Source: Escherichia phage P817. Taken from it: DNA of 50,751 nucleotides. The stretch lies in the sequence record MZ826699.1. One strand, given 5' to 3'. Both the position numbers and the translations under genes were made by a program. This document shows positions 1-50,751 of this stretch, piece by piece (position 1 is the first letter of the stretch; every line of letters begins with the position of its first letter). The notes under the pieces are model-generated. The model was not told where the DNA came from. It ran no database searches and was given only the letters and a program-made list of their open reading frames with translations.

Positions 1-80
1 CCTGCCGTACCTTCACCCTTAAACGTCTTGTTGTAAGAGTCGGTCTTAACGCTTTTTTTACTCATCTGTTTTTCTCCCAA
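1..80 (-). CDS. portal protein, 5' fragment (duplicate of 49385..49464; truncated by window start)
   Basis: Positions 1-1367 match 49385-50751; region corresponds to the first ~26 codons of the portal ORF 48187..49464. Confidence 0.6.
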   Translation of the reverse strand, partial: MGEKQMSKKSVKTDSYNKTFKGEGTA

Positions 81-87
81 TAAAAAA

Positions 88-108
88 GGCTAGGTTGTTA
101 GCCTAGCC
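88..108 (-). terminator. stem-loop GGCTAGG-N7-CCTAGCC with T-run between terL stop and portal start (second copy about 49472..49492)
   Basis: Perfect 7-bp inverted repeat; rc of A6 at 82-87 gives a U-tract on the minus strand. Confidence 0.35.
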
Positions 109-116
109 ATTATACA

Positions 117-1703
117 TTATTTGCGCATTCCCGCTAATCGTTTCATTCGTGCTACCGGATCATCAAGCAAGTTCATTTCGAAGTTGCCAGCATCAACAAC
201 GTTATCCACGATGTCGTCGTGAGGATGGCTATCGTCAAAGGTGAAGCCGACCAGTTCCGCTTCCATTTCAGTAAGCATTGGGTGTGATTCAGGAAACACG
301 ATTCGCCCTGCTTTCATGATTGGTGCTGCGTCCATTGCACGCGTAACTTTATCGGTATCTCGCTGCACTGGCGTGATGTCAATCGGAAGCTTCTTGTTGA
401 TTGACTGAATCAGGCCCGTACCGCTCGCCTTGTCTTCAATGTAAACCTTGCGTAGTGACGTCTTGTTCTCCTTCGCCCACTTGAAGCAGTTTCCGTAAAA
501 GTTAAGAGCCATCGTTTCAAGGTCCGGCGCTTCCCACTTACCGCGAATGCCGTCTATGAAATATACGCGATCCTTATACTTGCCCCACAAAACAAAGACG
601 CTGTAGTCGTGTATTTCCTCTGCCTTCTGCGCTGTATCCGCAGTGGTGAACAGGTATTCGAAGCGATCCGGTTTTGGCATGTTGGCTTTTTCGCCGTCGC
701 CGTAATACTGGAACCAGTCAGACTTAAACGCGTTACCACCAAGCGCGATGGGCTTCTGCTGATACTGTGATTCAAACGTGTAAAGGTCAGCTTCGCGCAA
801 CGCCAGCAGGCTCTCCGCGCTCTCCTTTGCAGGCCAGAAAGAGAAGTGCTCAACCCCGTCAATCATTACAGATGGAGAGGATAGCACGTCTCTGTCAAAT
901 TCCTCTTTCAACCAGTCAGGAAGCGTGTCTCTGTATTCCTCAGTTACCAGCGCCGGAATGATTACCTGCTCAAACTTCATGCCACCCATACCGCCATTCA
1001 TCAGGAACCACGTCGAGTCGTTAACGTGCAGTCGCTGCTGCACAACAACGCATGGCGTTCTGTCAGTCATACGACGTGATCGCACGGTGTTTTTTAGCAG
1101 TGTATGAGCCGCCTTGCGCTTAACGGACGAATACATGTCTTTCGGTTTGTCGGGGTCATCAAGCGTTAACATTCCGGTAAAGCTCCAGGGTTTACTGGGG
1201 TCTTCCATGTACCCGCCACGCTTACCAGTTACCTGGCCGCCGATCGCACGTGATGTTAACGTCAGCCACGCCTTATCGTTATCGTTAAGTGCGGTAATAT
1301 CGCCACCGGACGCCTTAGCAAGTTTGGTAGGCCATAGCTCCTGGAACTCATCGCAACCGATAATCTCACGCGTCCTGATCCCGTTATCCTTCACCAGACT
1401 GTCAGAGAACGAAAGGTTAAGATTTCGAACCTTCGGACTCTTTAACATTCCGTAAACTGGCATGTGGATAGAGAAGATCTCAGTCTTACCGGAGCCTGGC
1501 GTGATGTTGAATATCACGTTCTGCGCCTCGCCTTTGATGATCTGCTCAACCTTCCAGCAAAGGTAAGTGAAGTGCCAGTTGCTTTGGAACTTCTGAGCCT
1601 GCCCGATCTGGAACCAGATTCTCAACATCTTTTCGAATGACTGCTCAGATAGCGCCTTTATTGCCTGCTTTCTTGCAAGGTCGAGATCTTCCCACTGGAT
1701 CAT
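117..1703 (-). CDS. terL: terminase large subunit
   Basis: 528-aa ORF; P-loop-like NITPGSGKTE; sits between a small-terminase-sized ORF and the portal at the head of the structural operon. Confidence 0.8.
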   Translation of the reverse strand: MIQWEDLDLARKQAIKALSEQSFEKMLRIWFQIGQAQKFQSNWHFTYLCWKVEQIIKGEAQNVIFNITPGSGKTEIFSIHMPVYGMLKSPKVRNLNLSFSDSLVKDNGIRTREIIGCDEFQELWPTKLAKASGGDITALNDNDKAWLTLTSRAIGGQVTGKRGGYMEDPSKPWSFTGMLTLDDPDKPKDMYSSVKRKAAHTLLKNTVRSRRMTDRTPCVVVQQRLHVNDSTWFLMNGGMGGMKFEQVIIPALVTEEYRDTLPDWLKEEFDRDVLSSPSVMIDGVEHFSFWPAKESAESLLALREADLYTFESQYQQKPIALGGNAFKSDWFQYYGDGEKANMPKPDRFEYLFTTADTAQKAEEIHDYSVFVLWGKYKDRVYFIDGIRGKWEAPDLETMALNFYGNCFKWAKENKTSLRKVYIEDKASGTGLIQSINKKLPIDITPVQRDTDKVTRAMDAAPIMKAGRIVFPESHPMLTEMEAELVGFTFDDSHPHDDIVDNVVDAGNFEMNLLDDPVARMKRLAGMRK

Positions 1704-2236
1704 AATTCCCCCAAAATATCCTTGACGGCTTCTTTAAATTCATCAGTAGTTACTGACACCGCGCCAGCCGATACGTTGTTCTGCACGTTGACTTCTGCTG
1801 CCTTGTCGATACCAATGTCTTTACCTACGAATCCAGCATTGATAAGGTTGGACGCAGCAAGCTGATATTTCTGTTCAATGATTACTGAGTCAATGAACTC
1901 CATTACCTCAGAGAATCCAGGTGACGCGCGCCAGCTTTGGATCGCACCGGAGGTAACGCCGCAATAAAGCTGGAATCCGTTGAGCGTGAACACTCGCGGC
2001 TTATGCACTAAGTTCTCGGTGACAACACCCTGGAAGCTCGCCGTTTCGATTGCCTTGATTGCCTGGTCCTCGGCCCATGAGAAATACTTAACCGCCAGGT
2101 TGAATACAGTCTCAGGCGTCATTGGGTGGCGGTGGCTCAGGTTGGCGATATCGCCATACTTTTTATTGTACAGCTCTTTGAAGTTACCAATGCGCACCTT
2201 CTCTTGAGCGGTGCTGGTGAAGTTTTCATCTTTCAT
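1700..2236 (-). CDS. terminase small subunit (putative)
   Basis: 178-aa ORF immediately upstream of terL with 4-bp overlap; first gene after terminator and promoter-like sequence. Confidence 0.5.
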   Translation of the reverse strand: MKDENFTSTAQEKVRIGNFKELYNKKYGDIANLSHRHPMTPETVFNLAVKYFSWAEDQAIKAIETASFQGVVTENLVHKPRVFTLNGFQLYCGVTSGAIQSWRASPGFSEVMEFIDSVIIEQKYQLAASNLINAGFVGKDIGIDKAAEVNVQNNVSAGAVSVTTDEFKEAVKDILGEL

Positions 2237-2265
2237 GGTTTCATCCTCTTGTTGAATAGGAAGGA

Positions 2266-2274
2266 ATTATACCA
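2266..2274 (-). promoter_or_regulatory. candidate late promoter, extended -10 (TGGTATAAT) upstream of terS
   Basis: rc of attatacca; lies between a terminator and the terS start; no good -35. Confidence 0.3.
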
Positions 2275-2285
2275 GATTGCAGGCA

Positions 2286-2309
2286 TAAAAAAAGCACCCC
2301 GAAGGATGC
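2286..2309 (-). terminator. intrinsic terminator (GCATCC-TTCG-GGGTGC + T7) downstream of ORF 2319..2540
   Basis: GC stem-loop followed by U-tract on minus strand. Confidence 0.55.
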
Positions 2310-2318
2310 TTAAATGAA

Positions 2319-2540
2319 TCAATCAACGTATTTGATGGCCCCAGGCTTCCGCCCCGATCGAATGTCGTTAATCTCGTTGAACACAGAGATAAACTTGCCG
2401 GATACGCGCCACTGCTTTTTCTTCTCATCGTATCGAGCTTGAGCGAACTGACCTCGCTTAATTAACTTGGCTACCCATGAGCAAGATAATGAAATGATCA
2501 GGACGGAAGCGAAAATAAAACCATAAATAAACGTCAGCAT
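2319..2540 (-). CDS. hypothetical small membrane protein
   Basis: 73 aa; hydrophobic N-terminal segment FIYGFIFASVLIISL. Confidence 0.4.
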   Translation of the reverse strand: MLTFIYGFIFASVLIISLSCSWVAKLIKRGQFAQARYDEKKKQWRVSGKFISVFNEINDIRSGRKPGAIKYVD

Positions 2541-2731
2541 GAAATACCCCTTACATAATTAACTAAAAATTTATGAGTCGTTGTATCGACTCCGCTCATT
2601 TCCTTCACCTTTGAAACGGCTTCTTCGGCGCTACTGGCCTCAACCTTTGCTTCAAAGTTTTGCTTACAAGATGCGCATGTGCGCCCCATTAGCAAAATAG
2701 TTAGCTTGACCTCAAACATATCAAACCTCAT
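2534..2731 (-). CDS. hypothetical protein
   Basis: 65-aa ORF in minus-strand early gene string. Confidence 0.35.
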   Translation of the reverse strand: MRFDMFEVKLTILLMGRTCASCKQNFEAKVEASSAEEAVSKVKEMSGVDTTTHKFLVNYVRGISC

Positions 2732-2906
2732 TGTTAGGTCCGGTTACGGAGTCCGGCGGGCTTTCACAATGCCCCGATTTTTTTTTGCGACTTACACTTT
2801 GCTTTTGGCGATGCGCTATTTCAATTTGCGGCTTACGAACCGCTCGTTGCCACTTGGTGGCCTCGTCTGTTTACGAGATTAAAGATACCAGTCAGTGAGA
2901 TGGCTG

Positions 2907-3101
2907 TCAATCAACTTTTTTAAAAGTTCCATACGTCGGGCAAACAGGGTAGTCGATCGCGACCTTGTTCCCCTCGTCACTGTAGACGTAAACGTATCCC
3001 TGGGAATCAACTTTTTCCACTGTGTACTCGCAGCCAGTAAAGAACTCATAACCGCGCGCGCCGATACACTTGATCACGTCACCCTTCTTGATCTTACTCA
3101 T
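2907..3101 (-). CDS. hypothetical protein (start adjusted to MSKIKKGD, RBS GGAGAA)
   Basis: ORF-track frame 2907..3164; internal ATG with good RBS. Confidence 0.4.
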   Translation of the reverse strand: MSKIKKGDVIKCIGARGYEFFTGCEYTVEKVDSQGYVYVYSDEGNKVAIDYPVCPTYGTFKKVD

Positions 3102-3333
3102 AGATACTTTCTCCGTTTTCACGTTTGCCAACCAGCCCCTTAAGATAACCAGCAATCCACACAAATTTGTCGCGCGATATAATGGTCGCTACGGCCTCAT
3201 GGTGCTTGGTAATAATTGAGGCAACCATCTTATCATCTTTGCGATCTTTCTTGCTCAGGGTGGCATACGCTGCGTTTAATTGCTTGGCCTTGGCCTTTAC
3301 TGCGTTCATCTGCGGATCGGTTAATCCAAACAT
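3094..3333 (-). CDS. hypothetical protein
   Basis: 79-aa ORF, overlaps neighbours in operon fashion. Confidence 0.4.
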   Translation of the reverse strand: MFGLTDPQMNAVKAKAKQLNAAYATLSKKDRKDDKMVASIITKHHEAVATIISRDKFVWIAGYLKGLVGKRENGESIYE

Positions 3334-3659
3334 TATTCGTAAACCTCATCAATGATTTCGCTGATCTTGTTCATGGTGTCAACCTTGGCGCAATCCCATT
3401 CCGGTGAGCCTGGTTCTTCCCATGGTCCGCCAGGGCCGTGACACGTCATGTTGTCGATAAGTTCCGACACTTCGCTTTCCAGAACATTGCGCATGTGCTC
3501 AATCTGCCAGCATTCAACCGAGTCTTCTGCGTCGCGGTAAGCCTTGAACTCACCGCCGAGAACTTTTTGAGCTGCTTCGGCTGATTCCTTAGTTTCGTGA
3601 ACGGTCCGGCGAATCTCTTTACCGAACTTGCCAACGCCATAAGTGTGAATGTAAATCAT
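3333..3659 (-). CDS. hypothetical protein
   Basis: 108-aa ORF. Confidence 0.45.
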   Translation of the reverse strand: MIYIHTYGVGKFGKEIRRTVHETKESAEAAQKVLGGEFKAYRDAEDSVECWQIEHMRNVLESEVSELIDNMTCHGPGGPWEEPGSPEWDCAKVDTMNKISEIIDEVYE

Positions 3660-3868
3660 TCTTCGATCACCTTATATTCATTTTCGCTAATGCTGATTTC
3701 GTTGCCAACATGCACGAACTCTGTTTCACGGATAGCTTGGATTGAAAGGTCGCCGTCCTTGTATTTACCTGACACTTCGATTACGTCGCCGACTTTAAAG
3801 CCGCAATCTTCCAGAGTAAGAGCATCGTCATCAGTGATATAGTCAACGTCGATAATTTCAATTTTCAT
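3656..3868 (-). CDS. hypothetical acidic protein
   Basis: 70 aa, Asp/Glu-rich; preceded by box/stem-loop/box module and RBS. Confidence 0.45.
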   Translation of the reverse strand: MKIEIIDVDYITDDDALTLEDCGFKVGDVIEVSGKYKDGDLSIQAIRETEFVHVGNEISISENEYKVIEE

Positions 3869-4112
3869 TTCTGCTTCCTCGTTCGTTTCGATGGGGTAAC
3901 TATACAGCTACCCCGATTATGAGTTTTAACAAAAAGTGCTATCGTTGGTGATTTCGTGCAATCTTTTTCAACGCCAACCATATTTTAAAGCTGAAAATTT
4001 CAGGTTTTGTGAATCGTCGCTTCCCGTACTGTCGGCAAAGGCGGCGAACTCGTCGCTTATCAATCCACAGGTCAGTAATTATCTTTTCTGATTTGATTAG
4101 CTTCATGACTAT

Positions 4113-4272
4113 TACCCTTCGTTTTCGTCAAATTGTTGATTGTTGATCTGAGAGCGAACCTCTTTAACCATCTCTGAGAACTCATCGGCTGTGCACTGCA
4201 TAGTCTGAGTGGCCAGTAGTTGCTTAAGGATGACGGCTTGCTTATCTGACAGGTTGATAGTAATCATTTTCC
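4113..4272 (-). CDS. hypothetical small protein (about 52 aa, [10 protein letters not shown]...)
   Basis: Read by eye from reverse complement; below ORF-track cutoff. Confidence 0.25.
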
Positions 4273-4429
4273 AAGCACCCCTTTTGTTTTCAGATTGTGG
4301 CGGTAGAGCTGCATAACATGCCCATTGTGATGATTGCTTGATGGATACTCTTTCATATCGCTTTCCTCTCGTTTGGTGTGAACTAACTATAACAAAACCC
4401 GCCGGAGCGGGTTTAGCAATTCGTGCTAT

Positions 4430-5047: not shown

Positions 5048-5096
5048 TTTGATATTCCTGAGTAGTGGGCGCAATGTGCGCCCGTTAAGTTTATTT

Positions 5097-5786: not shown

Positions 5787-6590
5787 CTATTTGATATAGA
5801 ACTGAGCCACTACGCCACCATCAGGATTTGTGATTGCGTATGCGTCACCGATCGTTGCCTTGGCATTCATAACCTTACCAATTCTCCTGGCATTCCAGCG
5901 ATAATCTCCTTTTAAATCAGAGACGAATGCATCTTGTACGATATTAATAATGCTCGGCTCACACCCTGTCTCACATTCATCAACTTCATACTCATACTCA
6001 CAACCGTTGATAAACATATTTCCGTTAACATGGTAGCAAACAGCCACCTTGCGATCGCGTGCTGATTCACATTCACCAACCGCCCATACGTGATTATCGC
6101 TATAACCGTAACCGCAGCTTCGTGGTTCCATTTTCGCGGTTGACATGTTAAGCGCCTTGCCTTCACCGAAATTGCTACCGAAAGTGAACTTGGCATCTTT
6201 CGTCAGGTAATCAAACTTTGCGCCATCATCTACGACGGTTTTCCCTGGGCCAGCCGCAAGCTCATTCACGAATGCATCGACAGTGCTGTGACACGGATCG
6301 CCATTGTACTTAGGCAAATCCTTGAACAATTGCTCACATGCTTCGTGCACCAGCTTACCTACAGCTTCTTTGATTGCCTGCTCAACATGGTCAGCGATAA
6401 TCGACGGTGCAGAAATTTGATGTTTTTGAGTCGATTCTAAGGCCTTTAAACGTGCCTGTAAGGAATCGATTTCTTTTTTATGCATTGCGTAGGATACCCA
6501 CGCTCCATCGTCGCAGGATTGCATTCCGACGCCGTGAATATTGACGCTGGTTGGCACTGACACAGGGATATAACGGTTGATGCTGTTCAT
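5787..6590 (-). CDS. hypothetical Cys-rich protein
   Basis: 267-aa ORF; C-terminal half rich in Cys/Glu/Tyr (CEYEYEVDECETGCEP). Confidence 0.5.
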   Translation of the reverse strand: MNSINRYIPVSVPTSVNIHGVGMQSCDDGAWVSYAMHKKEIDSLQARLKALESTQKHQISAPSIIADHVEQAIKEAVGKLVHEACEQLFKDLPKYNGDPCHSTVDAFVNELAAGPGKTVVDDGAKFDYLTKDAKFTFGSNFGEGKALNMSTAKMEPRSCGYGYSDNHVWAVGECESARDRKVAVCYHVNGNMFINGCEYEYEVDECETGCEPSIINIVQDAFVSDLKGDYRWNARRIGKVMNAKATIGDAYAITNPDGGVVAQFYIK

Positions 6591-6671
6591 ATGTGATTCC
6601 TCAGTTGGTTTGTGTTCACTTGACAGGAGACACTATAGCTAATGTCTCCGAGCAAGTTTTAACAAAAAGTG

Positions 6672-6890
6672 CTATTCGATGAATCCGGCGCGAATTGCAG
6701 TTTCAAGTGTGACATACTGCTTAGCCGTCAGTGATGAGTGATAGGTAAAGATGCCAGCCTGGATACCCTTTACCAACTGATCCTGCGTAATGCCTGAGAT
6801 ATTAATAATCCCGTATCCGCCACCAGTGCGCAGGACCACATCGCCGACCGCACAAAATTCAATGCCTTTACTGTTAGTGTAGACTTGCAT
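6672..6890 (-). CDS. hypothetical protein
   Basis: 72 aa; stop codon overlaps intergenic box. Confidence 0.4.
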   Translation of the reverse strand: MQVYTNSKGIEFCAVGDVVLRTGGGYGIINISGITQDQLVKGIQAGIFTYHSSLTAKQYVTLETAIRAGFIE

Positions 6891-7255: not shown

Positions 7256-7642
7256 TCATAAGTAACCCTTCCCTACAGTTTCGCCAACTTCACGTGATGC
7301 CTTTAACTTGTTCCAGAAATCGAACGGGCCGACTGGCTCCCATGAGTTTGCAGGGATGTGCGGCTCTGATTCGCGAACAATTCCATTCCACCAACCAAGC
7401 TCAGTATCGCTATTGCGCTTATATCCGCCACCCATATTGAATACACGATCCAGTTCAGTAGCACCGACAACAACCCGATCCTTGAATACATCCTGAATAA
7501 TTTTAGGCTCATTGCTTATATCTTTAATCTCAACAACCACAGGGTAGTTATCAGGGTTAGATACAACCTCAATCTCATGAGGCTTACGACCTGGTTTCAG
7601 TGAATAGATTGACGGGTTGAGTAAACGTACTTTCATTTGCAA
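7256..7642 (-). CDS. hypothetical protein
   Basis: 128-aa ORF. Confidence 0.45.
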   Translation of the reverse strand: MQMKVRLLNPSIYSLKPGRKPHEIEVVSNPDNYPVVVEIKDISNEPKIIQDVFKDRVVVGATELDRVFNMGGGYKRNSDTELGWWNGIVRESEPHIPANSWEPVGPFDFWNKLKASREVGETVGKGYL

Positions 7643-7717
7643 TTCCTCTTATTGGTTGACTTTGCTTCAATAAGGCCACTATATCAAATGGCCTTGCGGA
7701 AGGTTTAACAAAAAGTG

Positions 7718-7906
7718 CTATTCGAATTTTTCGTTGTGGTGAATGACCTCAGCCACGTAAATCTTTCTCAAGAACCACTCCTGCGTTCCAGTGGAAGTAA
7801 TCTTGTGCATCTTCCATACCTGGTGCCAGGGCAGATACTCAATATCCTCAGCCAGTGCCGTGAACGCTTTGCCGCAGTGAGTGTAAATCGTGGTGTAGTT
7901 AGTCAT
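7718..7906 (-). CDS. hypothetical protein
   Basis: 62-aa ORF preceded by conserved leader GGTATACTTCTTTCATACCAAC. Confidence 0.4.
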   Translation of the reverse strand: MTNYTTIYTHCGKAFTALAEDIEYLPWHQVWKMHKITSTGTQEWFLRKIYVAEVIHHNEKFE

Positions 7907-8711: not shown

Positions 8712-8790
8712 AAATTACCCCTTAGTTGATTGTTTCACTTCAATGAGTGCACTATAGCAAATGCACTCACGGCAGTTTTAACAAAAAGTG

Positions 8791-9081
8791 CTATCGTTCA
8801 TCTTCTCTGGAGCATCCCTTGCCGCAACCATGGCGACCAACTTCCACGATCCCGACACCGCTTAAGCCGATGTATTCCTGACCAGTGTCCTTATCGGTGA
8901 TGACGTATATCGCTCTGACGTTCTCATATGCCAGTTCATCCCTGAACTCCTGAATCTTCACAACCTGGACGCGATCGCTGACATTCACTGGCATCTTCTG
9001 CCGAGCTTCTGAATCTACACGGGTGCTTCCGAAATCACATCCAGCCAGAGCCAGTGCTGCTAATAAAATTAGTTTCTTCAT
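8791..9081 (-). CDS. putative lipoprotein
   Basis: Signal peptide plus lipobox MKKLILLAALALAGC. Confidence 0.5.
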   Translation of the reverse strand: MKKLILLAALALAGCDFGSTRVDSEARQKMPVNVSDRVQVVKIQEFRDELAYENVRAIYVITDKDTGQEYIGLSGVGIVEVGRHGCGKGCSREDER

Positions 9082-9715: not shown

Positions 9716-10279
9716 CTATTCACCGTTCAGGAGTGATTTAGCTTTCCGATAAAACTCGACAGCCTTTCTGACCTCATCTGCATCATAGCCATGAATCATG
9801 TCTGAGCTTGCCTGCAATTTGCTATGAGATTTGCGCTCAACCGATCTCCATGGGTCGCACCACTTGTGAATGTCTCTCCCATACATGCCCACCAGGTATG
9901 GATGTGCATATATCTTGTCACCAATAAGGCAAATGATTCCCGCGTCCTGTAGTGATGGTAGGATGTTGTCAATCAGGTTATTCATTACTCCATTACGCTC
10001 GACGAACGGCTGGACCTTTCTGATCGCCTCATATGTTGAGCGAACTCCCACAACGCCTTTTCCATTTGTCGCTTGCTTCCAGATCTTTTCAACCACGACG
10101 CATTGTTCACGATTTAGGTTTGCGCGACGCATAACTTCCACTTCGCACCAGTACTTTTGTGACTGTCGGTATCCGTTAGCATTGATTGCAACTCGTAGTG
10201 GTTCAAGCCCATCTTCCGTAGCAATCTCCATAATCTGCTCATCCGTCAATTTGTCCTCGTTGAAGTCAAACATCCCCAT
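9716..10279 (-). CDS. domain-deleted paralog of the 527-aa P-loop protein (N- and C-terminal segments only)
   Basis: MFDFNEDKL..LRVAINANGYRQSQ and NGKGVVGVRS.YEA.RKV.PF...CLIGDKIY shared with ORF 13772..15355; central P-loop region absent. Confidence 0.55.
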   Translation of the reverse strand: MGMFDFNEDKLTDEQIMEIATEDGLEPLRVAINANGYRQSQKYWCEVEVMRRANLNREQCVVVEKIWKQATNGKGVVGVRSTYEAIRKVQPFVERNGVMNNLIDNILPSLQDAGIICLIGDKIYAHPYLVGMYGRDIHKWCDPWRSVERKSHSKLQASSDMIHGYDADEVRKAVEFYRKAKSLLNGE

Positions 10280-10800
10280 TATTTTGTCTCCTTAATCATT
10301 TCCTGGTACATTTTGATTGCCTTGATGGCCCCTGTAATCTCATCGCCTTCAAACTCAGTCACGGATGGCATCAGCTTGAGTATTTTGACCTTAAAGTCGC
10401 TCACAGCCTTCTCTGCAATCTGGCAGTTTGCCTTCACTCGCTTTCCTGTCTGGATTGCGCCATCAACCAAAGACAGATAAGCACACCGAACCTCGACGTC
10501 ATCACCGAAATCACCATCCTTAATTGAAAGTTTTGCACGAACGTTTGCCTCCTGTATCTCTGGCATCCTGGCTACCGTATTGGCGACATATGACGCCTTC
10601 AGCTTTGCCATACTGTACTTGCCACCTACATCCAGATCCTCACGACTTATGCCTCCTATATCACTAGATGTGAGGCCGTAAACCTGGCGAGCTATTAGAT
10701 GGATTGGGACGTGGTAGCTGCGGTTCTCGGACTTGAGCGCTTGCTCCGCCATGTAGCGGACGACATCGCCCAGGCTTACGCGTTGATTATGATTTGACAT
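10279..10800 (-). CDS. hypothetical protein (first gene of leftward early operon)
   Basis: 173-aa ORF adjacent to AT-rich divergent control region. Confidence 0.5.
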   Translation of the reverse strand: MSNHNQRVSLGDVVRYMAEQALKSENRSYHVPIHLIARQVYGLTSSDIGGISREDLDVGGKYSMAKLKASYVANTVARMPEIQEANVRAKLSIKDGDFGDDVEVRCAYLSLVDGAIQTGKRVKANCQIAEKAVSDFKVKILKLMPSVTEFEGDEITGAIKAIKMYQEMIKETK

Positions 10801-11519
10801 AGATATTACTCCTGATTGGTGGTCTTCGTTAAGATGGGTGCAATACTACCAGCGTGGTTACATGTTATCAAGTGTTATTGATGCAAATGTTCGACTTAGT
10901 TACGTTTTGCGACCTCTCGCCCCAGATATAGCTCAATGTAAAGTCTGCGTATAGTTTGTAGATAAGGATTTTTAGCAAATGGGCCCCTACATGACCTTTT
11001 ATTCCTACAATGTCGTCATATTCCTACAGGTGTAGGAAAATATCATAGAAAACAATCGCAATATCACATATCCACTATCTACATTATCTACATATATATA
11101 TATTAATAATAATAATATAGATAAATGGTTATTATATAAGGATATTTTAATGTAACCATGGCGTAATTCTGCGTGATAAGCGTACACGATTCCTACGGTG
11201 GGCTTCTTCATCTACACGGCGTAACTTTTATAACGCGTATGCGCTAGAAACGTGTGGCGGGAAAATCCTACCAGGCGATCAGGGGATCAGACTTCACCCC
11301 ATCATTCCCCCCATCAATGAATCATTGCTCAATTCGCAACAATCGAAAACATCATTGCATCGGAAGCAATATTGCTGTATGTGCAATAGTCATGATAATC
11401 ATTGCAATAGCTGCAACAATCCATAAATCCAACGAATGGCACTTTTTTCTAATGACCGATCAGTTGTGATTCGCTATTGTTACTCCATCGAAACGAGTGA
11501 AGAGAACTGGAGAAAATAA
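10801..11519. promoter_or_regulatory. AT-rich divergent control region with palindrome TTCCTACAGGTGTAGGAA, direct repeats (ATTCCTACA, ATCTACAT, ATCATTGC x3); candidate early promoters or origin
   Basis: Non-coding, flanked by divergent genes; about 70 bp shares about 80% identity with 30710..30805. Confidence 0.45.
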
Positions 11520-11699
11520 ATGAGCACTGTTAAAATTCATTGCTACGTCGTGATGGCTGAGCCACGCGAGCCGGAATATGACACTCAGGTGCACTGCGTG
11601 TGCCTCAGTGAGCAGATGGCAGAGCAGGTTTGCGAGAAGATGAACGCAACCGACAAGTACAACCAGTACGACTACTACGAAACGGAGCTACAGAAATGA
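11520..11699 (+). CDS. hypothetical small protein (59 aa)
   Basis: Read by eye: RBS GGAGAAAATAA then ATG; ATGA overlap with next ORF. Confidence 0.35.
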   Translation: MSTVKIHCYVVMAEPREPEYDTQVHCVCLSEQMAEQVCEKMNATDKYNQYDYYETELQK

Positions 11700-11905
11700 T
11701 GTTTGACATTGTGCAGTTTATCGGGAGCGGCAACGAGTATCTGATCAGTTGCGATAACTCACAGACCGAAGTGTTCCGCCTGGTTGATGGTTTGCCACTG
11801 CAAACGACCGCGATGGATAGCCAAATCATTGAGTGCGCGTTATTGTCTGGCGGCGCGCGGGTAATTGGTCAGGCGAAAATCACTGTTGAGATTTCACTAA
11901 TTTAA
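11696..11905 (+). CDS. hypothetical protein
   Basis: MMFDIVQF...; in ORF-track frame 11630..11905. Confidence 0.35.
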   Translation: MMFDIVQFIGSGNEYLISCDNSQTEVFRLVDGLPLQTTAMDSQIIECALLSGGARVIGQAKITVEISLI

Positions 11906-25304: not shown

Positions 25305-25399
25305 CAATTACCCGCTACGGAGGGTTTTTTTATGCCTTACGTAATGCTATACTGCACTTTAGCAATTCGTGCTAAACACCAATATAGGAGTTGATTATT

Positions 25400-27901
25400 A
25401 TGGCAATTTATGACTTAGGAACTGCGTCGCTAGCCGCAAATGGCGAGGTGACTGGTATCGGTACAACATGGAAAGCACCTCTTACACTGATTCGAGTTGG
25501 TGCTACCATTGTTTTCAAAACTGAACCAGTACAGATTTACACCATCTCAGAAATTATCAGCGACACTCAGATTAATGTTTACAATCCAAATTCTGAAACT
25601 GTTCCTGCCGGGACTGGTTACGCGATTCTTGCTCACGATGGAATTACCGTTCAGGGGTTGGCTCAGGATGTTGCAGAAACCCTTCGTTACTATCAGTCGA
25701 GTGAGACAGAAGTTGCAGATGCTGTTGATGCATTTAACAATTTTGACTCTGCTGATTTTGAATCAAAGGTAACGCAGGTAAACACGCAGTACGGTGATGT
25801 TGTTACGATTGCAGAACAGGTAAACACGAAGTACGGTGATATTGTTACGATTGCAGAACAGGTTTCAAGTGATGCATCATCATCACAAATTAACGCCACC
25901 AATGCATCATCTTCCGCCGATAGAGCAGAGGCGGCGGCAAACTCTGTGTCTGGAACATTAACTTTAAGCTTCTCCGATGGAGGAACGGTAGAGTCTAAAA
26001 GACAACAGGTTTTATACATCAATGGAAATGAGGTTAAATCTTATGTCTGGACTGGATCATTACCAAAGACTTTTCCAGTCGGTTCAACTCCTGAAACTTC
26101 CGGTGGTGTTGGTTTAGGTGCGTGGGTTATTGTTGGCGACGCATCGCTGCGCAGTGACTTAGCAAAAACAAATGGTGCAGGATTAATCGGAGGTTTATCA
26201 AAACCGATTACGTTCTGGGGTGCTGTAGGTGATGGTGTTACAAATAACACATCAGCATTCAATTCTGCTGAGGATTCACAGTTTAATGATATATACATAC
26301 CTGAAGGCAACTTTAAGGTTGATAATATTACCTTTAATAAACGATATTGGGGTCCAGGGATTGTGGTAATCGATCACAAATCTGATTTCACTGGCGTGGG
26401 AATTAACGACATGACCGTGTCAGGAATATACAATGGACAGCAAGATCTAAATGCAATTGTAAGAATAAAGGAAGCTTCAAATCCTGATAAGCTTGAATTC
26501 AGTACAGACAATGGAGTTACATGGCATGACACGATAGACGTGTACAATCCAATCGATGACAGTGTATCTCCGCAACCAATCGTAATACTTGCAGGCGGGG
26601 TGGATTTTTTCGTAAGTGGATTGAAGATAAGCTTTTCTTCAACCACTGGACATACAGCAAATGACTCATGGTCATTTTTAATTCCTTCCAATCCATCAGT
26701 AATAAACACAGGAAGTGGTAGCATCGTTAAATCAGGAAGCATTATTTTTAATGTTAGTGGAAACAATGACACTAATACTTCCGCTGGAAAAGACTCATTA
26801 GGCGGTGGAAACGTAGGAGCTAACAATACCGCATATGGGTGGAAGTGCTTATACTCAAACACTACAGGATACGCAAATACCGCGTCTGGGATTCAGTCTA
26901 TGGAAAACAATAAGACTGGTAAAAACAACTGTGCATACGGTGCTGATTCTCTAAGAACTAACGTATCTGGTTCTGATAACGTAGCTGTTGGGGTCTTTGC
27001 GTCAGGAGCAAACACAACAGGGTACGGTAACACTGGACTTGGTAACGATGCCAATAGGTACAATGAAACAGGATTCGGAAATACCGCAGCGGGTGTGCAG
27101 GCACTGTACCACAACAAGGCCGGTAATGAGAACACAGCTTTCGGTGAATACGCATTACGCGGCGGAAGTTCCAGTATGCCTACGGGAACATCTGTTCAGT
27201 ATTTCGTGGCTGTAGGGGCTAAAGCTGGTTTCAACGCGTTAGGTAATAACAACACTGCTATCGGATACGAGGCGCTATATGCGGCCTCAGGTGCAAATAA
27301 CGTTGGAGTTGGGTTTGACGCAGGATTCAAAGTTACCGACGGGTCTTTCAATATATTTTTAGGGGCATCGTCAGGCAACGTTACTGGGCAGGCCGAGCAC
27401 GTCCATAACTGTGTTCTTCTTGGTGATAGTACGAAATCAACGGGGAGTAACGCGGTTGCTATCGGTAGCGGGGTAACTGCGGCGCAAAACACGATCGCAA
27501 TCGGCAACAGCTATCACACAGACATTTTCCATTACGGAAATTTAAAGCCGCAATTAGATAACACCTTTAGTATAGGAAGTTCTTCTGCAAGGTACACACA
27601 AGTTTACGCGACCAACGGCACCATTAATACATCTGACGAGCGGTTAAAAACACCACTCGATTTCGACCTGTTAGATGCTGAAAAAAGAGCCGCCGCTGAG
27701 ATAAAAAAACATATCGGTAAATTCAGGTGGTTAGACCATGTTGGTAGTAAAGTGCATTTTGGTGTTGGCGCTCAGGCAGTGGAGCGAATACTAACTAAAA
27801 ATGGACTTAACAGTAACGACTACGCTTTCCTTGTAAAAGAAAATGGTTCTTATGGTATTAACTACGGGGAGTTGGCTATGTTTATATTAATGGCGATTTA
27901 A
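25400..27901 (+). CDS. tail fiber with C-terminal intramolecular chaperone (S74-type) domain
   Basis: N-terminus MAIYDLGTASLAANGEVTGIGTTW; Gly/Asn-rich repeats; C-terminal SDERLK...FGVGAQAVERIL motif; start ATG after AGGAG. Confidence 0.7.
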   Translation: MAIYDLGTASLAANGEVTGIGTTWKAPLTLIRVGATIVFKTEPVQIYTISEIISDTQINVYNPNSETVPAGTGYAILAHDGITVQGLAQDVAETLRYYQSSETEVADAVDAFNNFDSADFESKVTQVNTQYGDVVTIAEQVNTKYGDIVTIAEQVSSDASSSQINATNASSSADRAEAAANSVSGTLTLSFSDGGTVESKRQQVLYINGNEVKSYVWTGSLPKTFPVGSTPETSGGVGLGAWVIVGDASLRSDLAKTNGAGLIGGLSKPITFWGAVGDGVTNNTSAFNSAEDSQFNDIYIPEGNFKVDNITFNKRYWGPGIVVIDHKSDFTGVGINDMTVSGIYNGQQDLNAIVRIKEASNPDKLEFSTDNGVTWHDTIDVYNPIDDSVSPQPIVILAGGVDFFVSGLKISFSSTTGHTANDSWSFLIPSNPSVINTGSGSIVKSGSIIFNVSGNNDTNTSAGKDSLGGGNVGANNTAYGWKCLYSNTTGYANTASGIQSMENNKTGKNNCAYGADSLRTNVSGSDNVAVGVFASGANTTGYGNTGLGNDANRYNETGFGNTAAGVQALYHNKAGNENTAFGEYALRGGSSSMPTGTSVQYFVAVGAKAGFNALGNNNTAIGYEALYAASGANNVGVGFDAGFKVTDGSFNIFLGASSGNVTGQAEHVHNCVLLGDSTKSTGSNAVAIGSGVTAAQNTIAIGNSYHTDIFHYGNLKPQLDNTFSIGSSSARYTQVYATNGTINTSDERLKTPLDFDLLDAEKRAAAEIKKHIGKFRWLDHVGSKVHFGVGAQAVERILTKNGLNSNDYAFLVKENGSYGINYGELAMFILMAI
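25778..25861 (+). repeat. 42-bp tandem duplication inside tail fiber gene (VNTQYGDVVTIAEQ / VNTKYGDIVTIAEQ)
   Basis: Two adjacent near-identical 42-bp units. Confidence 0.8.
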
Positions 27902-30430: not shown

Positions 30431-30970
30431 CTCTTTAATCCTCGTTCGTTGTTGATGCTGGTAACTATACGCGCTTGGTTGCGTTAGTCAAGTGGTTACA
30501 TGTAGATATTTGTAATCACGTGTATGCAATGGCGTCAGTTACATAAAATGGCTATCCAGACCAGCTATAGCTTGATGTAAACGGCGTGTATATCGTGTAT
30601 ACCATTTTTCGCGGAGGGTGCATTGGTGTATGCGTGATTAGATACTGTATGAATATACATATTAGAAATTTATAAGCGGAACACTCTATAGAAGTAGTTA
30701 CACGATATACACAGTAATATATATAATAATAATAATTATAGTAGAAGGTTGATATATATAGATATTTTAATGTAACTATCGCGTAACTAGGCGTAACTGC
30801 GCGTATATCATTTTTCGCGGACGAGATTGCATACATCGAGTTACATCGGTTACGTGTATATAGTTGCATTTTCATACTTGACACCAAAAAGCACGAATTG
30901 CTAAAGCTCAATTAATGGTTAGTGTATAGTTACCTCATCGAAACGAAAAACACTTAATAAGGATTCAAAA
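30431..30970. promoter_or_regulatory. AT-rich divergent control region homologous to 10801..11519
   Basis: Shares TGGTTACATGT and about 70 bp ...AATAATAAT...GATATTTTAATGTAAC... with region 1; internal repeats GCGTAACT x2 and TATATC...ATTTTTCGCGGA x2. Confidence 0.45.
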
Positions 30971-45455: not shown

Positions 45456-45545
45456 AATTTGTTCCTTTTGGTTTAGAAAGACGTGATTAAGTTCACGAGT
45501 CTATAATAGCATTTTTTGTTAAGCGCGCAATAGATTTTTATGCAT

Positions 45546-45566
45546 TAAAAAAGGGGCCGAAGCCCC
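45546..45566 (-). terminator. intrinsic terminator (GGGGC-TTCG-GCCCC + T6)
   Basis: Perfect GC stem plus U-tract on minus strand. Confidence 0.6.
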
Positions 45567-45575
45567 GTATTTTAA

Positions 45576-46187
45576 TTAAGCCGCCGCGCCAGGGTCGCCC
45601 TTGTCACCTTTTGGACCTTGAGGACCAGTGTCACCTTTATCGCCTTTCGGACCTTGAGGGCCAGTGTCACCTTTCGCACCTTGAGGACCAACAACGGGAG
45701 CACCAGCAGATTGAAGCAACTGAATCTGAACGAGATCATATGTAGCATTATCAGATGATAACTTCTGACCAGTAAATTTATAACCAGTTGCAATATCGCC
45801 ATCTCGAGCAACTACGCCATCTGAGTTAAACAATACCTGCTTGCCGTAAGAGTAATCGTCATCAAGTAAACCAGCCTTAACGACAGGAACCCATACGCGA
45901 CCATGTGTAAGAACGTTTACAGCAATTCCGTCTTCATATTCACCACTTGCAGAGTATGCGTGACTCATAACTGAAACGCCAATCAATGGTAGAGAACTGT
46001 CAGTAGCAACCTTGACTACTTTGTGCCCGTCAACGGCTTGTACTTCACTCACTGCGAGAAGTCGCCCGACAGGGATTGAACCATCAGCAGCGCAAGCCCC
46101 GTCAACATTGTAAAGGGAGGTGTCTGCGATTTGACCAGCATACGCTTTAGCGCGATGTACGGTGTAAGAAGCTTTGATTAGTGCCAT
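45576..46187 (-). CDS. putative head decoration/cement protein with C-terminal collagen-like (Gly-X-Y)n tail
   Basis: Position between scaffold and capsid genes; C-terminus GPQGAKGDTGPQGPKGDKGDTGPQGPKGDKGDPG. Confidence 0.45.
   Translation of the reverse strand: MALIKASYTVHRAKAYAGQIADTSLYNVDGACAADGSIPVGRLLAVSEVQAVDGHKVVKVATDSSLPLIGVSVMSHAYSASGEYEDGIAVNVLTHGRVWVPVVKAGLLDDDYSYGKQVLFNSDGVVARDGDIATGYKFTGQKLSSDNATYDLVQIQLLQSAGAPVVGPQGAKGDTGPQGPKGDKGDTGPQGPKGDKGDPGAAA
45579..45700 (-). repeat. tandem DNA repeats encoding collagen-like Gly-X-Y triplets
   Basis: Repeated ggaccttgagg/ccagtgtcacc units of about 30 bp. Confidence 0.7.
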
Positions 46188-46240
46188 GATATTTTTCCTT
46201 TTTCACTTAGAGATTAAGCGGCCTTTCGACCGCCATTTTA

Positions 46241-47356
46241 TTACTTACGGAAGCGCGCCTGTGGATCAGGAATCGCATCATCATCTTTGCCGCCTTGAGC
46301 GCCATCAGCTTTGTCGCCGTGCACTTTAATGCGTTGAGCAGCCATCTTATCAGAATCGCGTGCGATTTCATAAGACTGATTGATGTATGCGTCGGATTTT
46401 TCTTTCGCGTCAATGCCGAGAACTTCGTCAATGACTGCCAGCTTGATGGCTTTCTCGTCAAGGCCGTCGCACTTGATACCCATGCCGGAAGCTAATGCGA
46501 TAACAGCGCCAAGCTCGTCAGCTTTTTCTTTTGCTTCTGCCAGGGCCGCTTCGATCTGAGCTGGAATGCCATCAACCTTTGCTTTCAGCGCATCACGCTC
46601 AGCTTGCAGGCCATCGACTTTAGCACCAGCTTGCTCTGCTGCGGTTTGCAGTTTGCCGATGTGTTCAGCTACGTCTTTTGACACTTCCACTTCTGCTGAA
46701 TCAATTTTAATTTTTACGGTCATGTTACTTTCCTCATTGGTTAATTGAACATGCTCATCATATTTAATTTCTTCTGAGCCGTCAAGATTTAATCTGGCAA
46801 CACCAGCTCGACCCTTGCTAACAAGTGCGACGTGATTAACCCTAATTTTTGTCTGTAGAACGTCAAACTCTACCCAGTCATCTGGGATGCTAATATCAGG
46901 CCCAACGTCGTCTTTGAAAATATATTCACCAGATGCATTTGAACCCCAACCTTCCCTGTGAATCTCAATAACTGTGTATCCTACTGACAACTCTCTAGCC
47001 CTGCCGCTCTCAGCAGCAGCAATTGCATCGGAGTCCATTATGGTGATCGGGCACATTACCTTGCCCTCACCTCTATCAGCAAAAGCCTCTCCAGAACAAT
47101 TACCCACAACAACATCTTTTGCGTTATCTGGAGTTACCGTTACGTGCCCAAGTGTTATTGGCTTCCCTCTGTAACTAGTCAGTGAGTCTATATCAAAAAC
47201 CTCACTTCCTGGCCTGAACTCCCTCTGTGTTGAGCCATCTGCTAACGTATACTCCTGTAAGCCAACCCTTGCAACTACTGGGACATCAAAAATAAATCCA
47301 TTCTCATCCTTTATCGCCTTAAATAACAGGTAATCAAACCTTTGCTTAGCTTTCAT
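46241..47356 (-). CDS. prohead protease / scaffolding protein (putative fusion)
   Basis: 371 aa; C-terminal Ala/Lys/Glu-rich coiled-coil-like region; position between head morphogenesis and capsid genes. Confidence 0.5.
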   Translation of the reverse strand: MKAKQRFDYLLFKAIKDENGFIFDVPVVARVGLQEYTLADGSTQREFRPGSEVFDIDSLTSYRGKPITLGHVTVTPDNAKDVVVGNCSGEAFADRGEGKVMCPITIMDSDAIAAAESGRARELSVGYTVIEIHREGWGSNASGEYIFKDDVGPDISIPDDWVEFDVLQTKIRVNHVALVSKGRAGVARLNLDGSEEIKYDEHVQLTNEESNMTVKIKIDSAEVEVSKDVAEHIGKLQTAAEQAGAKVDGLQAERDALKAKVDGIPAQIEAALAEAKEKADELGAVIALASGMGIKCDGLDEKAIKLAVIDEVLGIDAKEKSDAYINQSYEIARDSDKMAAQRIKVHGDKADGAQGGKDDDAIPDPQARFRK

Positions 47357-47410
47357 ATACTAACCCTCTCCAAATCCAGTTAATTTAAACATCCCAATTT
47401 TCCTCATTAA

Positions 47411-48184
47411 TCATGATACTTCCCCGTTTGATGTTGTAAAATCAGGAATTGCCCAACAACGGCAACCGTAAGGCTCGCCAGGGAACGGATGGTCACTTGA
47501 GATCTCAATGCGTTTACCTTCCCATTTAACGTGTTGTAATCGCTCGCGTTCATCCAGTTTACCATGCCAGAAATAGTGAGTTACTCCAGCATCATCAAGT
47601 CGCTGGCGCATCAGTACGCTGTTCCATGTGGACACGATTCCACGTGAGCGATTCACGGTCCAGCCAGTATACACCTTGTAGCGCTGCTTTAAAACTTCAT
47701 CAACCTGCTGACTGGTTTTATTGCGCACGTTTTCGACGCGTAGGTTTTGCGACCAGTCAGAGATGATGTCTCTCGCTAACTTTAAAATACTCGCCTCAGC
47801 CGAACCGCGCCATTGCGATGACTTCTCGCGATACCATGACTCATTGGCATTCGCCCCAAGCGCGCCAAGCAAGATCACAGATTGATTCTTTCCGCCACCT
47901 GCCTTCTTAGCCACGTTGAGGAATTGCTTTGAGTTGAACTTGTATATAGTCAGGGCCAGTGCCGGAAGTGTGGCAACAATTGCTGCGATCATTCCGGCAG
48001 CGTATTCCTCTAGCTCATCCTCTGCATCATTGATTTCTTCGTCCGAAGCGTCGAATCTCATCCCACCAGTAAGCGATCTGGCTTTCTTTGCCATCTCGCC
48101 TGCGAAGGTTGACAATGAGCGGCTAAGTTGCCGCTCGCTTGCTTCGGGGTAACTCCATTGATTTACAATGCCGTTAACCTTCAT
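47411..48184 (-). CDS. head morphogenesis / minor head protein
   Basis: 257 aa immediately downstream of portal. Confidence 0.5.
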   Translation of the reverse strand: MKVNGIVNQWSYPEASERQLSRSLSTFAGEMAKKARSLTGGMRFDASDEEINDAEDELEEYAAGMIAAIVATLPALALTIYKFNSKQFLNVAKKAGGGKNQSVILLGALGANANESWYREKSSQWRGSAEASILKLARDIISDWSQNLRVENVRNKTSQQVDEVLKQRYKVYTGWTVNRSRGIVSTWNSVLMRQRLDDAGVTHYFWHGKLDERERLQHVKWEGKRIEISSDHPFPGEPYGCRCWAIPDFTTSNGEVS

Positions 48185-48186
48185 GA

Positions 48187-49464
48187 TTATTCCTCGTTGT
48201 TCACCTGCGGGTTAATTGGTTCGATTTCTTCAAGCTCCGGCGCTGGGCCTTGCATCTTGATAAAGTCTGCGATTGCCTCAAGTGTATCACGCGCTTCGTC
48301 ACGGTCAATAACCTGATCAGCCAACAGCTTTGAAAGCGATTCAACGTTATTCTTCAACGTCTCGGATTGTTCTTTCTCGCTTGGCATTGATAGTGGCTCG
48401 AATCGAACTGACCATTCCTCTTCCTGCACAATCATAGGAATTAACCACTCCAGAAGCGGCCTGTAATACTCGTTACGCTTGCGGTCAATCATCTTGTAGA
48501 AAGTCTCAAGCGCTGTGTTCTGGCTCGCTGACACGCCGCCTACGTTCTTATTCTTGAGGATGATCTCATGAATCTGCGAGTAGTTGACGATGCGGTCCAT
48601 CTTCTTATCCAGGAAAGCATCAACGCCGCCAATGTCTGAGTTAAGGACGTCGTATTCTTCGTCGGTGGCATCAATGCCAATCGTTCGGCCTACGCCGCTA
48701 TTGTCATCAACCTGAGCTAATCGCAGTCGAGCCGCGTAACGCCCTTCGTCATCGTCGCACAAATCAGCCAGTCCTTTTGCTTTCCATACGCCTTGCTGCT
48801 TACGGCGCAATAGCTGAGTAGCCAGTTCTTCACAGTAGTTGTAGTCCAGGATGGCGTCAATCAAGCCCTTACTCAGCACCGATGCGCCCCAATCGTTATT
48901 CTGCGCGCGAAGTGAGTTAGGTACGCTCTCGCCGCCGTTAACATAGATTCGCGTGTAGTGTACGTCGTATTCCGGTACGCTTCCGCCAGGGTTAATGGTG
49001 TAAATCTTCGGCATACCATAGCGAGGGTTGCGTGCGTTCTTCTCGCGGTCCTTGATGCGGATCTGCTCTTTCTCGTACACTCGGATTGATTCAAGCTGCG
49101 CACCTTCCTTGATTGGTGATGTCAGGAGTCGGTTGTCACGGACGACGGCAACGATAGCGGAACCACCATAAAGCCGCTCCCATGAGAACGCCTCGACAAT
49201 CTGCTTGTTCAGCTTCATGCCATCCCACAAAGATTTGAACGCCTTCTCATCCTTCACCCCGTCCAGGCCGAATCCAGGGAAAACCATTTCCTCTGGAATA
49301 ACATCGACAATTTTCTTAGCCATAGGATCATCAATGTAAAACTGCGTCACATACATCTGATCGTATAGCGATGCAAGCGCGCCGCCTGCCGTACCTTCAC
49401 CCTTAAACGTCTTGTTGTAAGAGTCGGTCTTAACGCTTTTTTTACTCATCTGTTTTTCTCCCAA
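48187..49464 (-). CDS. portal protein (likely ATG start at 49449, MSKKSVK)
   Basis: 425 aa immediately downstream of terL. Confidence 0.7.
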   Translation of the reverse strand: MGEKQMSKKSVKTDSYNKTFKGEGTAGGALASLYDQMYVTQFYIDDPMAKKIVDVIPEEMVFPGFGLDGVKDEKAFKSLWDGMKLNKQIVEAFSWERLYGGSAIVAVVRDNRLLTSPIKEGAQLESIRVYEKEQIRIKDREKNARNPRYGMPKIYTINPGGSVPEYDVHYTRIYVNGGESVPNSLRAQNNDWGASVLSKGLIDAILDYNYCEELATQLLRRKQQGVWKAKGLADLCDDDEGRYAARLRLAQVDDNSGVGRTIGIDATDEEYDVLNSDIGGVDAFLDKKMDRIVNYSQIHEIILKNKNVGGVSASQNTALETFYKMIDRKRNEYYRPLLEWLIPMIVQEEEWSVRFEPLSMPSEKEQSETLKNNVESLSKLLADQVIDRDEARDTLEAIADFIKMQGPAPELEEIEPINPQVNNEE

Positions 49465-50751
49465 TAAAAAAGGCTAGGTTGTTAGCCTAGCCATTATACA
49501 TTATTTGCGCATTCCCGCTAATCGTTTCATTCGTGCTACCGGATCATCAAGCAAGTTCATTTCGAAGTTGCCAGCATCAACAACGTTATCCACGATGTCG
49601 TCGTGAGGATGGCTATCGTCAAAGGTGAAGCCGACCAGTTCCGCTTCCATTTCAGTAAGCATTGGGTGTGATTCAGGAAACACGATTCGCCCTGCTTTCA
49701 TGATTGGTGCTGCGTCCATTGCACGCGTAACTTTATCGGTATCTCGCTGCACTGGCGTGATGTCAATCGGAAGCTTCTTGTTGATTGACTGAATCAGGCC
49801 CGTACCGCTCGCCTTGTCTTCAATGTAAACCTTGCGTAGTGACGTCTTGTTCTCCTTCGCCCACTTGAAGCAGTTTCCGTAAAAGTTAAGAGCCATCGTT
49901 TCAAGGTCCGGCGCTTCCCACTTACCGCGAATGCCGTCTATGAAATATACGCGATCCTTATACTTGCCCCACAAAACAAAGACGCTGTAGTCGTGTATTT
50001 CCTCTGCCTTCTGCGCTGTATCCGCAGTGGTGAACAGGTATTCGAAGCGATCCGGTTTTGGCATGTTGGCTTTTTCGCCGTCGCCGTAATACTGGAACCA
50101 GTCAGACTTAAACGCGTTACCACCAAGCGCGATGGGCTTCTGCTGATACTGTGATTCAAACGTGTAAAGGTCAGCTTCGCGCAACGCCAGCAGGCTCTCC
50201 GCGCTCTCCTTTGCAGGCCAGAAAGAGAAGTGCTCAACCCCGTCAATCATTACAGATGGAGAGGATAGCACGTCTCTGTCAAATTCCTCTTTCAACCAGT
50301 CAGGAAGCGTGTCTCTGTATTCCTCAGTTACCAGCGCCGGAATGATTACCTGCTCAAACTTCATGCCACCCATACCGCCATTCATCAGGAACCACGTCGA
50401 GTCGTTAACGTGCAGTCGCTGCTGCACAACAACGCATGGCGTTCTGTCAGTCATACGACGTGATCGCACGGTGTTTTTTAGCAGTGTATGAGCCGCCTTG
50501 CGCTTAACGGACGAATACATGTCTTTCGGTTTGTCGGGGTCATCAAGCGTTAACATTCCGGTAAAGCTCCAGGGTTTACTGGGGTCTTCCATGTACCCGC
50601 CACGCTTACCAGTTACCTGGCCGCCGATCGCACGTGATGTTAACGTCAGCCACGCCTTATCGTTATCGTTAAGTGCGGTAATATCGCCACCGGACGCCTT
50701 AGCAAGTTTGGTAGGCCATAGCTCCTGGAACTCATCGCAACCGATAATCTC
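49385..50751. repeat. 1367-bp terminal duplication of positions 1..1367
   Basis: Direct sequence identity at both window ends. Confidence 0.85.
49501..50751 (-). CDS. terL: terminase large subunit, second copy, 3' portion (truncated by window end)
   Basis: Identical to 117..1367. Confidence 0.7.
   Translation of the reverse strand, partial: EIIGCDEFQELWPTKLAKASGGDITALNDNDKAWLTLTSRAIGGQVTGKRGGYMEDPSKPWSFTGMLTLDDPDKPKDMYSSVKRKAAHTLLKNTVRSRRMTDRTPCVVVQQRLHVNDSTWFLMNGGMGGMKFEQVIIPALVTEEYRDTLPDWLKEEFDRDVLSSPSVMIDGVEHFSFWPAKESAESLLALREADLYTFESQYQQKPIALGGNAFKSDWFQYYGDGEKANMPKPDRFEYLFTTADTAQKAEEIHDYSVFVLWGKYKDRVYFIDGIRGKWEAPDLETMALNFYGNCFKWAKENKTSLRKVYIEDKASGTGLIQSINKKLPIDITPVQRDTDKVTRAMDAAPIMKAGRIVFPESHPMLTEMEAELVGFTFDDSHPHDDIVDNVVDAGNFEMNLLDDPVARMKRLAGMRK

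Follow-up and report, generated by a model that had tools for sequence, protein, structure and literature searches.

Terminal duplication and genes at the window boundaries

The record of Escherichia phage P817 (MZ826699.1) was analysed over its whole length of 50,751 nucleotides (hereafter the window). The window begins and ends in the same segment, which spans the junction between the genes for the terminase large subunit (terL) and the portal protein. Base-by-base comparison of the two ends showed that positions 1-1367 are identical to positions 49385-50751, with 0 mismatches. The longest prefix of the window that equals a suffix is 1,367 bp, and a repeat finder reported the same end pair as repeat family D1. 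An exact end match of 1,367 bp (2.8% of the genome) cannot be attributed to chance (~4^-1367). Subtraction of the overlap from 50,751 bp gives a unit genome of 49,384 bp. The initial annotation had proposed this duplication, a unit of about this size, window ends inside portal and terL, and a terL-portal hairpin within the duplicated segment. These proposals agree with our measurements: base 1 is portal nucleotide 65, the last base belongs to terL codon 112, and the hairpin is present at 108-88 (minus strand) with a second copy at 49492-49472. The genes and elements concerned are listed below.

Positions 1-1367, no strand assigned: left copy of the terminal duplication, comprising portal nucleotides 1-65, the terL-portal spacer and terL codons 113-528.
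Positions 49385-50751, no strand assigned: right copy of the terminal duplication, an exact match to 1-1367 and the redundant copy to be trimmed.
Positions 1700-2236, minus strand: terS, terminase small subunit of the P22 gp3 type, 178 amino acids (Pfam PF16677 GP3_package, PHROG 606).
Positions 117-1703, minus strand: terL, complete copy, 528 amino acids (Pfam PF17289 Terminase_6C, PHROG 38).
Positions 49501-50751, minus strand: truncated second copy of terL, codons 113-528 and stop, cut by the window end and without the first 112 codons.
Positions 48187-49449, minus strand: portal, complete copy, 420 amino acids (Pfam PF06381 Phage_portal_3, 2.9e-67; PHROG 146).
Positions 1-65, minus strand: first 65 nucleotides of the portal open reading frame (ORF), duplicated at the left end (from the sequence and its exact duplication).
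Positions 88-108, minus strand (second copy 49472-49492): terL-portal junction hairpin, a terminator-like match with a 7-bp G+C-rich stem and a 7-nucleotide loop.

On the minus strand the gene order is terS, terL, a spacer of 51 nucleotides and portal. TerS matched PF16677 GP3_package with 34.4 bits (cut-off 29.4) and PHROG 606 with an E-value of 7e-54. For TerL, the profile matches were PF17289 Terminase_6C (2.3e-11) and PHROG 38 (1e-104); a sequence search of TerL against solved structures gave no match at E <= 0.01. Counted from the terL start, the final base of the window is the last base of codon 112.

The portal start was assigned to the ATG at 49449, which is equivalent to position 65. 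The program-made ORF list places it instead at a TTG at 49464, immediately following the T run of the hairpin. This TTG is probably not the true start. The shorter form was preferred because a GGGAGA ribosome-binding site precedes the ATG and because portal is annotated with 420 amino acids in the relatives.

P817 as a T1-like phage

The DNA of the terL region is 96% identical to that of Escherichia phages vB_EcoM_50EP (50EP), TH21 and BUCT-XGG-1, which are classified in the family Drexlerviridae, genus Nouzillyvirus. In whole-genome matching against the phage record collection, from which the window itself was absent, the best records displayed 87-93% identity over 81-86% coverage. Exact-match scans of viral, metagenome and genome contig collections gave no hit. 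When reverse-complemented, the window is collinear with T1 over its full length. Protein identity to T1 is 55.7% for TerS, 62.4% for TerL (amino acids 5-526), 62% for portal and 56% for the helicase, and amino acids 118-526 of T1 TerL also align to the truncated terL copy at 49501-50751. On the basis of these comparisons, the P817 window is the complete genome of a new member of Nouzillyvirus, a T1-like coliphage of a known genus.

ARAGORN detected no tRNA gene in the whole window. ESCO41, the type species, carries a tRNA-Arg(tct) upstream of terS that the window lacks.

Continuity across the boundaries in relatives

Five comparison sequences were used, 50EP from GenBank and four metagenome contigs (Logan, ENA) encoding identical TerL. 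The 49,384-bp unit genome, rotated and in single copy, served as the target for alignment. All five align as single blocks, at 92-96% identity, and cross one or both boundaries of the overlap. Position 49384|1 is crossed by 4 of the five. Contig L005 ends at window position 68, so it crosses 1367|1368 only; contig L004 crosses both boundaries and ends at window position 49259.

The GenBank records of TH21, TH27 and TH30, products of the Geneious de novo assembler (PMC7498436), also close with an exact repeat of their beginning, over 872, 402 and 427 bp, respectively. The TH21 overlap corresponds to window positions ~32.6-33.5 kb, within a tail-tip J-like gene. Those of TH27 (~11.1-11.5 kb) and TH30 (~30.5-30.9 kb) fall in two divergent intergenic regions. 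An assembler of the overlap type, working on a circular map, leaves end overlaps whose length and place are arbitrary. Moreover, terL is found at 14 different coordinates and in both orientations among the relatives' records, and 50EP was deposited as circular. There is no agreed physical end among these records, and no record of the relatives compared ends or repeats at the portal/terL boundaries. Because the boundaries of the P817 overlap lie inside two essential genes and are not shared with the overlaps or record starts of the relatives, they are arbitrary.

After trimming, the unit genomes of TH21, TH27 and TH30 measure 51,215, 51,942 and 51,327 bp, all above the 50,751 bp of the window, and their major capsid protein is ~96% identical to that of the window. 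Such a capsid would have to hold more than about 52 kb. It is therefore unlikely, from this comparison, that 50,751 bp is the chromosome of a single virion, since the units of relatives with a ~96% identical capsid protein exceed the whole window. The trimmed P817 unit of 49,384 bp lies among the sizes of its relatives (48.4-51.9 kb), with gene content collinear with T1 and with continuity over the boundaries in the relatives. The window displays the features of a circular-map overlap: an exact match of prefix and suffix, a complete single-copy unit and arbitrary boundaries. Conserved ends common to the relatives, as expected of a fixed terminal repeat, were not found among them, and the closest characterised terminase is that of T1, a headful packager, rather than one from phages that package with a direct terminal repeat (DTR).

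Packaging in T1-like phages and candidate pac region

T1-like phages use headful packaging and have no fixed ends (PMC13164509); their DNA is packaged from concatemers (PMC11447400). Headful packaging initiated at a pac site, yielding terminally redundant and partly permuted DNA, is documented for the T1 family (PMC11447400, PMC7471380, PMC7718038, PMC13164509). The restriction patterns of SU57 fit permuted DNA, and experiments showed that this phage lacks a cos site (PMC7718038). In TLS, a submolar pac fragment was described, together with series of three to four headfuls that result in partial permutation, each headful adding ~1 kb (PMC11447400). Permutation in T1-like phages is thus partial, with a series of three to four headfuls starting from one pac site. 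The phage Chapo was assembled as one contig with overlapping ends, and 2x coverage was absent, as its authors expected; ~20% of the local reads had identical ends, which placed its pac cut at 68/69 (PMC7471380).

TerS and TerL of P817 are orthologous to those of T1, an experimentally characterised headful packager, and a TerS of the P22 gp3 type would argue against cos packaging. The T1 record (NC_005833) was opened at the pac end, with the 2,800-bp redundancy annotated there, 8.4 kb upstream of terS. The TLS record has the same layout as T1, and both the TLS and ESCO41 records were opened at the equivalent place. As the paper on ESCO41 (PMC10269720) contains no analysis of termini, the start of that record cannot be used as an experimentally determined end.

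These record starts are syntenic with a divergent non-coding stretch of the window (~10801-11520), which contains the following element.

Positions 11290-11425, minus strand: candidate pac region, outside the duplication; motif block shared with T1 27-90, assigned by homology.

Read on the minus strand from 11425 to 11290, this region contains GATTGTTGC ... GATTGTTGC-N7-GCAATGATT-N8-GGGGGGA ... TCGCCTGGT. Positions 27-90 of the T1 record carry GATTGTTGC, GCAATGATT, GGGGGGA and TCGCCTGGT in the same order. GGGGGGA occurs exactly once per genome in both the window and T1, and GATTGTTGCA occurs once in the window, at the candidate pac. Chapo is co-numbered with T1 in this region, and its read-mapped cut lies 4 nucleotides past GGGGGGA (...GGGGGGATTTA|GTGTTACC...; cut from PMC7471380). 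The SH2 record begins exactly at the GTGTTACC of the Chapo cut. ESCO41 and TH27 carry the same motif block, and the start of the ESCO41 record aligns to window position 11416 (minus strand). When the first 1.4 kb of T1 was compared with the window by plain blastn, no alignment was obtained; the pac-proximal homology was seen only via synteny, with ESCO41 as an intermediate, and by motif comparison.

From homology, the first pac cut of P817 is predicted near 11302/11301, with packaging toward lower coordinates. This position is uncertain by a dozen or so bases because the spacer in the window is 11 nucleotides longer. The physical redundancy of first-headful molecules would then be located ~10 kb from the window ends. 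The plus-strand genes flanking the region start at an ATG at 11521, preceded by a GGAGAA ribosome-binding site. For this reason, two listed ORFs on the minus strand, 11005-11211 and 11605-11829, are unlikely to be real genes.

A 71-nucleotide AT-rich repeat is present at 11104-11174 and 30724-30794 (77% identical), one copy in each divergent intergenic region. The same two regions hold the end overlaps of TH27 and TH30. Contigs L002 and L003 both end ~270 nucleotides upstream of the DUF7174 gene, beside the first AT-rich copy. These AT-rich spots seem to break short-read assemblies.

Origin of the terminal duplication

Altogether, the duplication is very probably an overlap left by assembly, in a T1-like genome that has a circular map and is packaged by headfuls, rather than a biological terminal repeat, and the genome is in that case complete at 49,384 bp. 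The assembler would have gone once round the 49,384-bp unit and then 1,367 bp further, so that the contig ends match. Virion DNA would be cut from concatemers by a pac-initiated headful terminase, composed of the P22-gp3-type TerS and the T1-type TerL, and the map would close on itself because of this mode of cutting. Molecules produced by headful cutting would be terminally redundant and in part circularly permuted, and would share no single pair of ends. From homology with T1, Chapo and SH2, packaging series would start near 11.30 kb on the minus strand and proceed toward terS, terL and portal, and the redundancy of first-headful molecules would extend from roughly 11.3 kb downward. How large the physical terminal redundancy is, and where it lies, cannot be read from the 1,367 bp of the overlap. 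The initial annotation had offered two readings: either a permuted, headful-packaged genome had been assembled or a circular contig had been linearised. These amount to the same thing, and are supported by the genus, the cut genes, the uninterrupted relatives, the overlaps of the relatives and the literature on the family.

Several points weigh against this explanation. The overlap (1,367 bp, 2.8%) falls within the range of physical redundancy in T1-like phages, from ~1 kb in TLS to 2.8 kb in T1, and size alone does not exclude a physical origin. The reverse argument, that 1,367 bp would be too small for a physical redundancy, was considered and rejected, given that TLS adds only ~1 kb per headful (PMC11447400). 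The overlap also far exceeds the k-mer-sized overlaps of SPAdes or MEGAHIT, and for P817 we have to assume an assembler of the overlap type or one using long reads. Finally, we infer the packaging mode of P817 itself from homology.

The first of these points bears on whether the window might be the chromosome of a single virion, or a consensus of one class of such chromosomes, with a headful of 50,751 bp and a true redundancy of 1,367 bp, such as a late member of a packaging series captured by a long read. A redundancy of 2.8% would lie between the ~1 kb per headful of TLS (PMC11447400) and the 2.8 kb annotated in T1, and with pac near 11.3 kb and packaging downward, a fourth or fifth headful could begin in the terL region. 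We nevertheless regard a single-chromosome origin as improbable. Indeed, phages of the same genus with a ~96% identical capsid protein have units of 51.2-51.9 kb, so that the headful must exceed ~52 kb. Moreover, late headful cuts are imprecise, and many such molecules would not yield a consensus with clean ends, while assemblers do not keep the ends of a minority permutation class. Much the same sequence would be obtained if the contig came from intracellular DNA, either concatemeric or circular replicative forms, the overlap then reflecting head-to-tail concatemer junctions. T1-like phages do package from concatemers (PMC11447400), a metagenomic or infected-culture library would hold such DNA, and the sequence outcome would equal that of an assembly overlap from virion DNA. 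This origin, which we consider very improbable, is indistinguishable by sequence and would change the template but leave the meaning of the overlap as it is.

Least probable of all, to the point of being hardly credible, is a genuine direct repeat of 1,367 bp at fixed termini, as in phages of the T7, T5 or N4 kind. In that case a Nouzillyvirus would have departed from T1-type headful packaging, each virion DNA would begin in portal and finish in terL, and the chromosome ends would carry truncated portal and terL. The pattern that would suggest it is the exact match of prefix and suffix, which is the only such sign and which CheckV-type tools label 'DTR'. However, the T1 orthologues of TerS and TerL belong to a pac headful packager, and the ends would lie in two essential genes instead of at a conserved non-coding end. 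The relatives neither open nor repeat at portal/terL and have their own overlaps elsewhere, and the literature on the family reports no fixed ends (PMC7718038, PMC13164509, PMC11447400, PMC7471380).

The terL-portal hairpin

The hairpin in the duplicated segment has the sequence GGCTAGG-CTAACAA-CCTAGCC, followed by T6; the terminator scan picks it up at 108-82 (minus strand), including the T run. Its centroid fold has an energy of -11.8 kcal/mol, and the 66-nucleotide stretch is not exceptional versus shuffles (z = -1.6). The hairpin is kept beside the portal start in 50EP, in three metagenome contigs (L002-L004) and in ESCO41. In T1 the same spacer holds a hairpin of another sequence (GGGCTGTCAATTGACGGCCC and a T run), for which the record gives a rho-independent terminator. 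Within the late operon, the terL-portal hairpin is a transcriptional element, conserved and terminator-like. A role as packaging signal was also considered and was rejected: the T1 counterpart is annotated as a terminator, the element is 10 kb from the syntenic pac region and its folding energy is ordinary. The hairpin is incidental to the duplication, which merely happens to span the terL-portal spacer.

The same spacer contains an extra gene between terL and portal in ESCO41 (record positions 10187-10735), PH1062, P818, p111, CJ19 and XT34. This gene is annotated as an HNH or homing endonuclease in PH1062, P818, p111 and CJ19. The P817 window (spacer 66-116), 50EP and the TH phages have an empty endonuclease site. 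In ESCO41, TGTATAAT flanks the insert on both sides.

Other repeats and proteins in the window

Intergenic repeats of 77-94 nucleotides were found at 6586-6679, 7632-7725 and 8718-8794, with the common core TTAACAAAAAGTGCTAT. The motif is found further at 3931, 5779 and 23812, and on the minus strand at 11436, 16268 and 45506. With up to one mismatch, AAAAAGTGCTAT occurs 9 times in the window versus 0.37 expected. The same core is present in intergenic regions of T1, and the repeats recall the 18 intergenic 21-base repeats described in TLS (PMC11447400). The intergenic repeat may act as a promoter or have a regulatory role in the early region.

Two proteins also contain internal repeats. The first is a head decoration or cement-like protein of 203 amino acids (45576-46187, minus strand), which has a collagen-like Gly-X-Y run at its C-terminus (GPQGAKGDTGPQGPKGDKGDTGPQGPKGDKGDPG; repeat at 45589-45696). 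Its homologues on L002 and L003 have 170 amino acids, and the collagen-like stretch is unaligned there. The second is a putative tail fibre of 836 amino acids (ORF 25391-27901), whose gene contains a tandem 42-nucleotide (14-codon) duplication, 95% identical, at 25775-25858 (plus strand).

Use of the record

Overlapping contig ends are an already known phenomenon and a routine assembly signature, and the duplication in itself brings nothing biologically new. The overlap marks the contig as a complete genome of 49,384 bp. The copy at 49385-50751 should be trimmed before gene counts, comparison by average nucleotide identity or VIRIDIC, and deposition. Otherwise, annotation yields a second, truncated terL and the genome appears 2.8% too large. 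The overlap should not be taken as a biological 'DTR' and gives no basis for inferring the packaging type. A layout following the convention of the family would be the reverse complement, opened in the non-coding region at 10.8-11.5 kb, for instance at 11416 (equivalent to the T1 and ESCO41 starts) or at the predicted pac cut at ~11301.

Comparison with known phages

T1 (NC_005833), the prototype of the Drexlerviridae, shares its gene order with the window throughout, and both have a terminator-like hairpin between terL and portal. Both also have a divergent non-coding region ~8-9 kb upstream of terS that contains GATTGTTGC, GCAATGATT, GGGGGGA and TCGCCTGGT. The T1 record differs in that it was opened at pac and gives its physical 2,800-bp redundancy only once (repeat_region 1-2800), whereas the window, opened inside portal and terL, contains a literal duplicate of 1,367 bp. 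The two phages belong to different genera, their DNA being only ~65-70% identical in conserved genes. Chapo (vB_EcoS_Chapo, MT682715; PMC7471380) likewise has the pac-proximal motif block in common with the window. It is, however, a Tunavirus, and its authors trimmed the record, set its start to that of T1 by rotation and used read ends to map the pac cut (PMC7471380).

Within the genus, ESCO41 (vB_EcoS_ESCO41, NC_047820), the type species of Nouzillyvirus, shows the same synteny as the window, but its record contains no terminal duplicate, and the phage carries the extra terL-portal gene and the tRNA-Arg. TH21, TH27 and TH30 (MT446395, MT446401 and MT446404) belong to Nouzillyvirus like the window, with ~87-92% DNA identity, and each of their records ends with its own start, as does that of P817. 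They differ from P817 in that these overlaps lie away from terL/portal and that their unit genomes are 1.8-2.6 kb longer.

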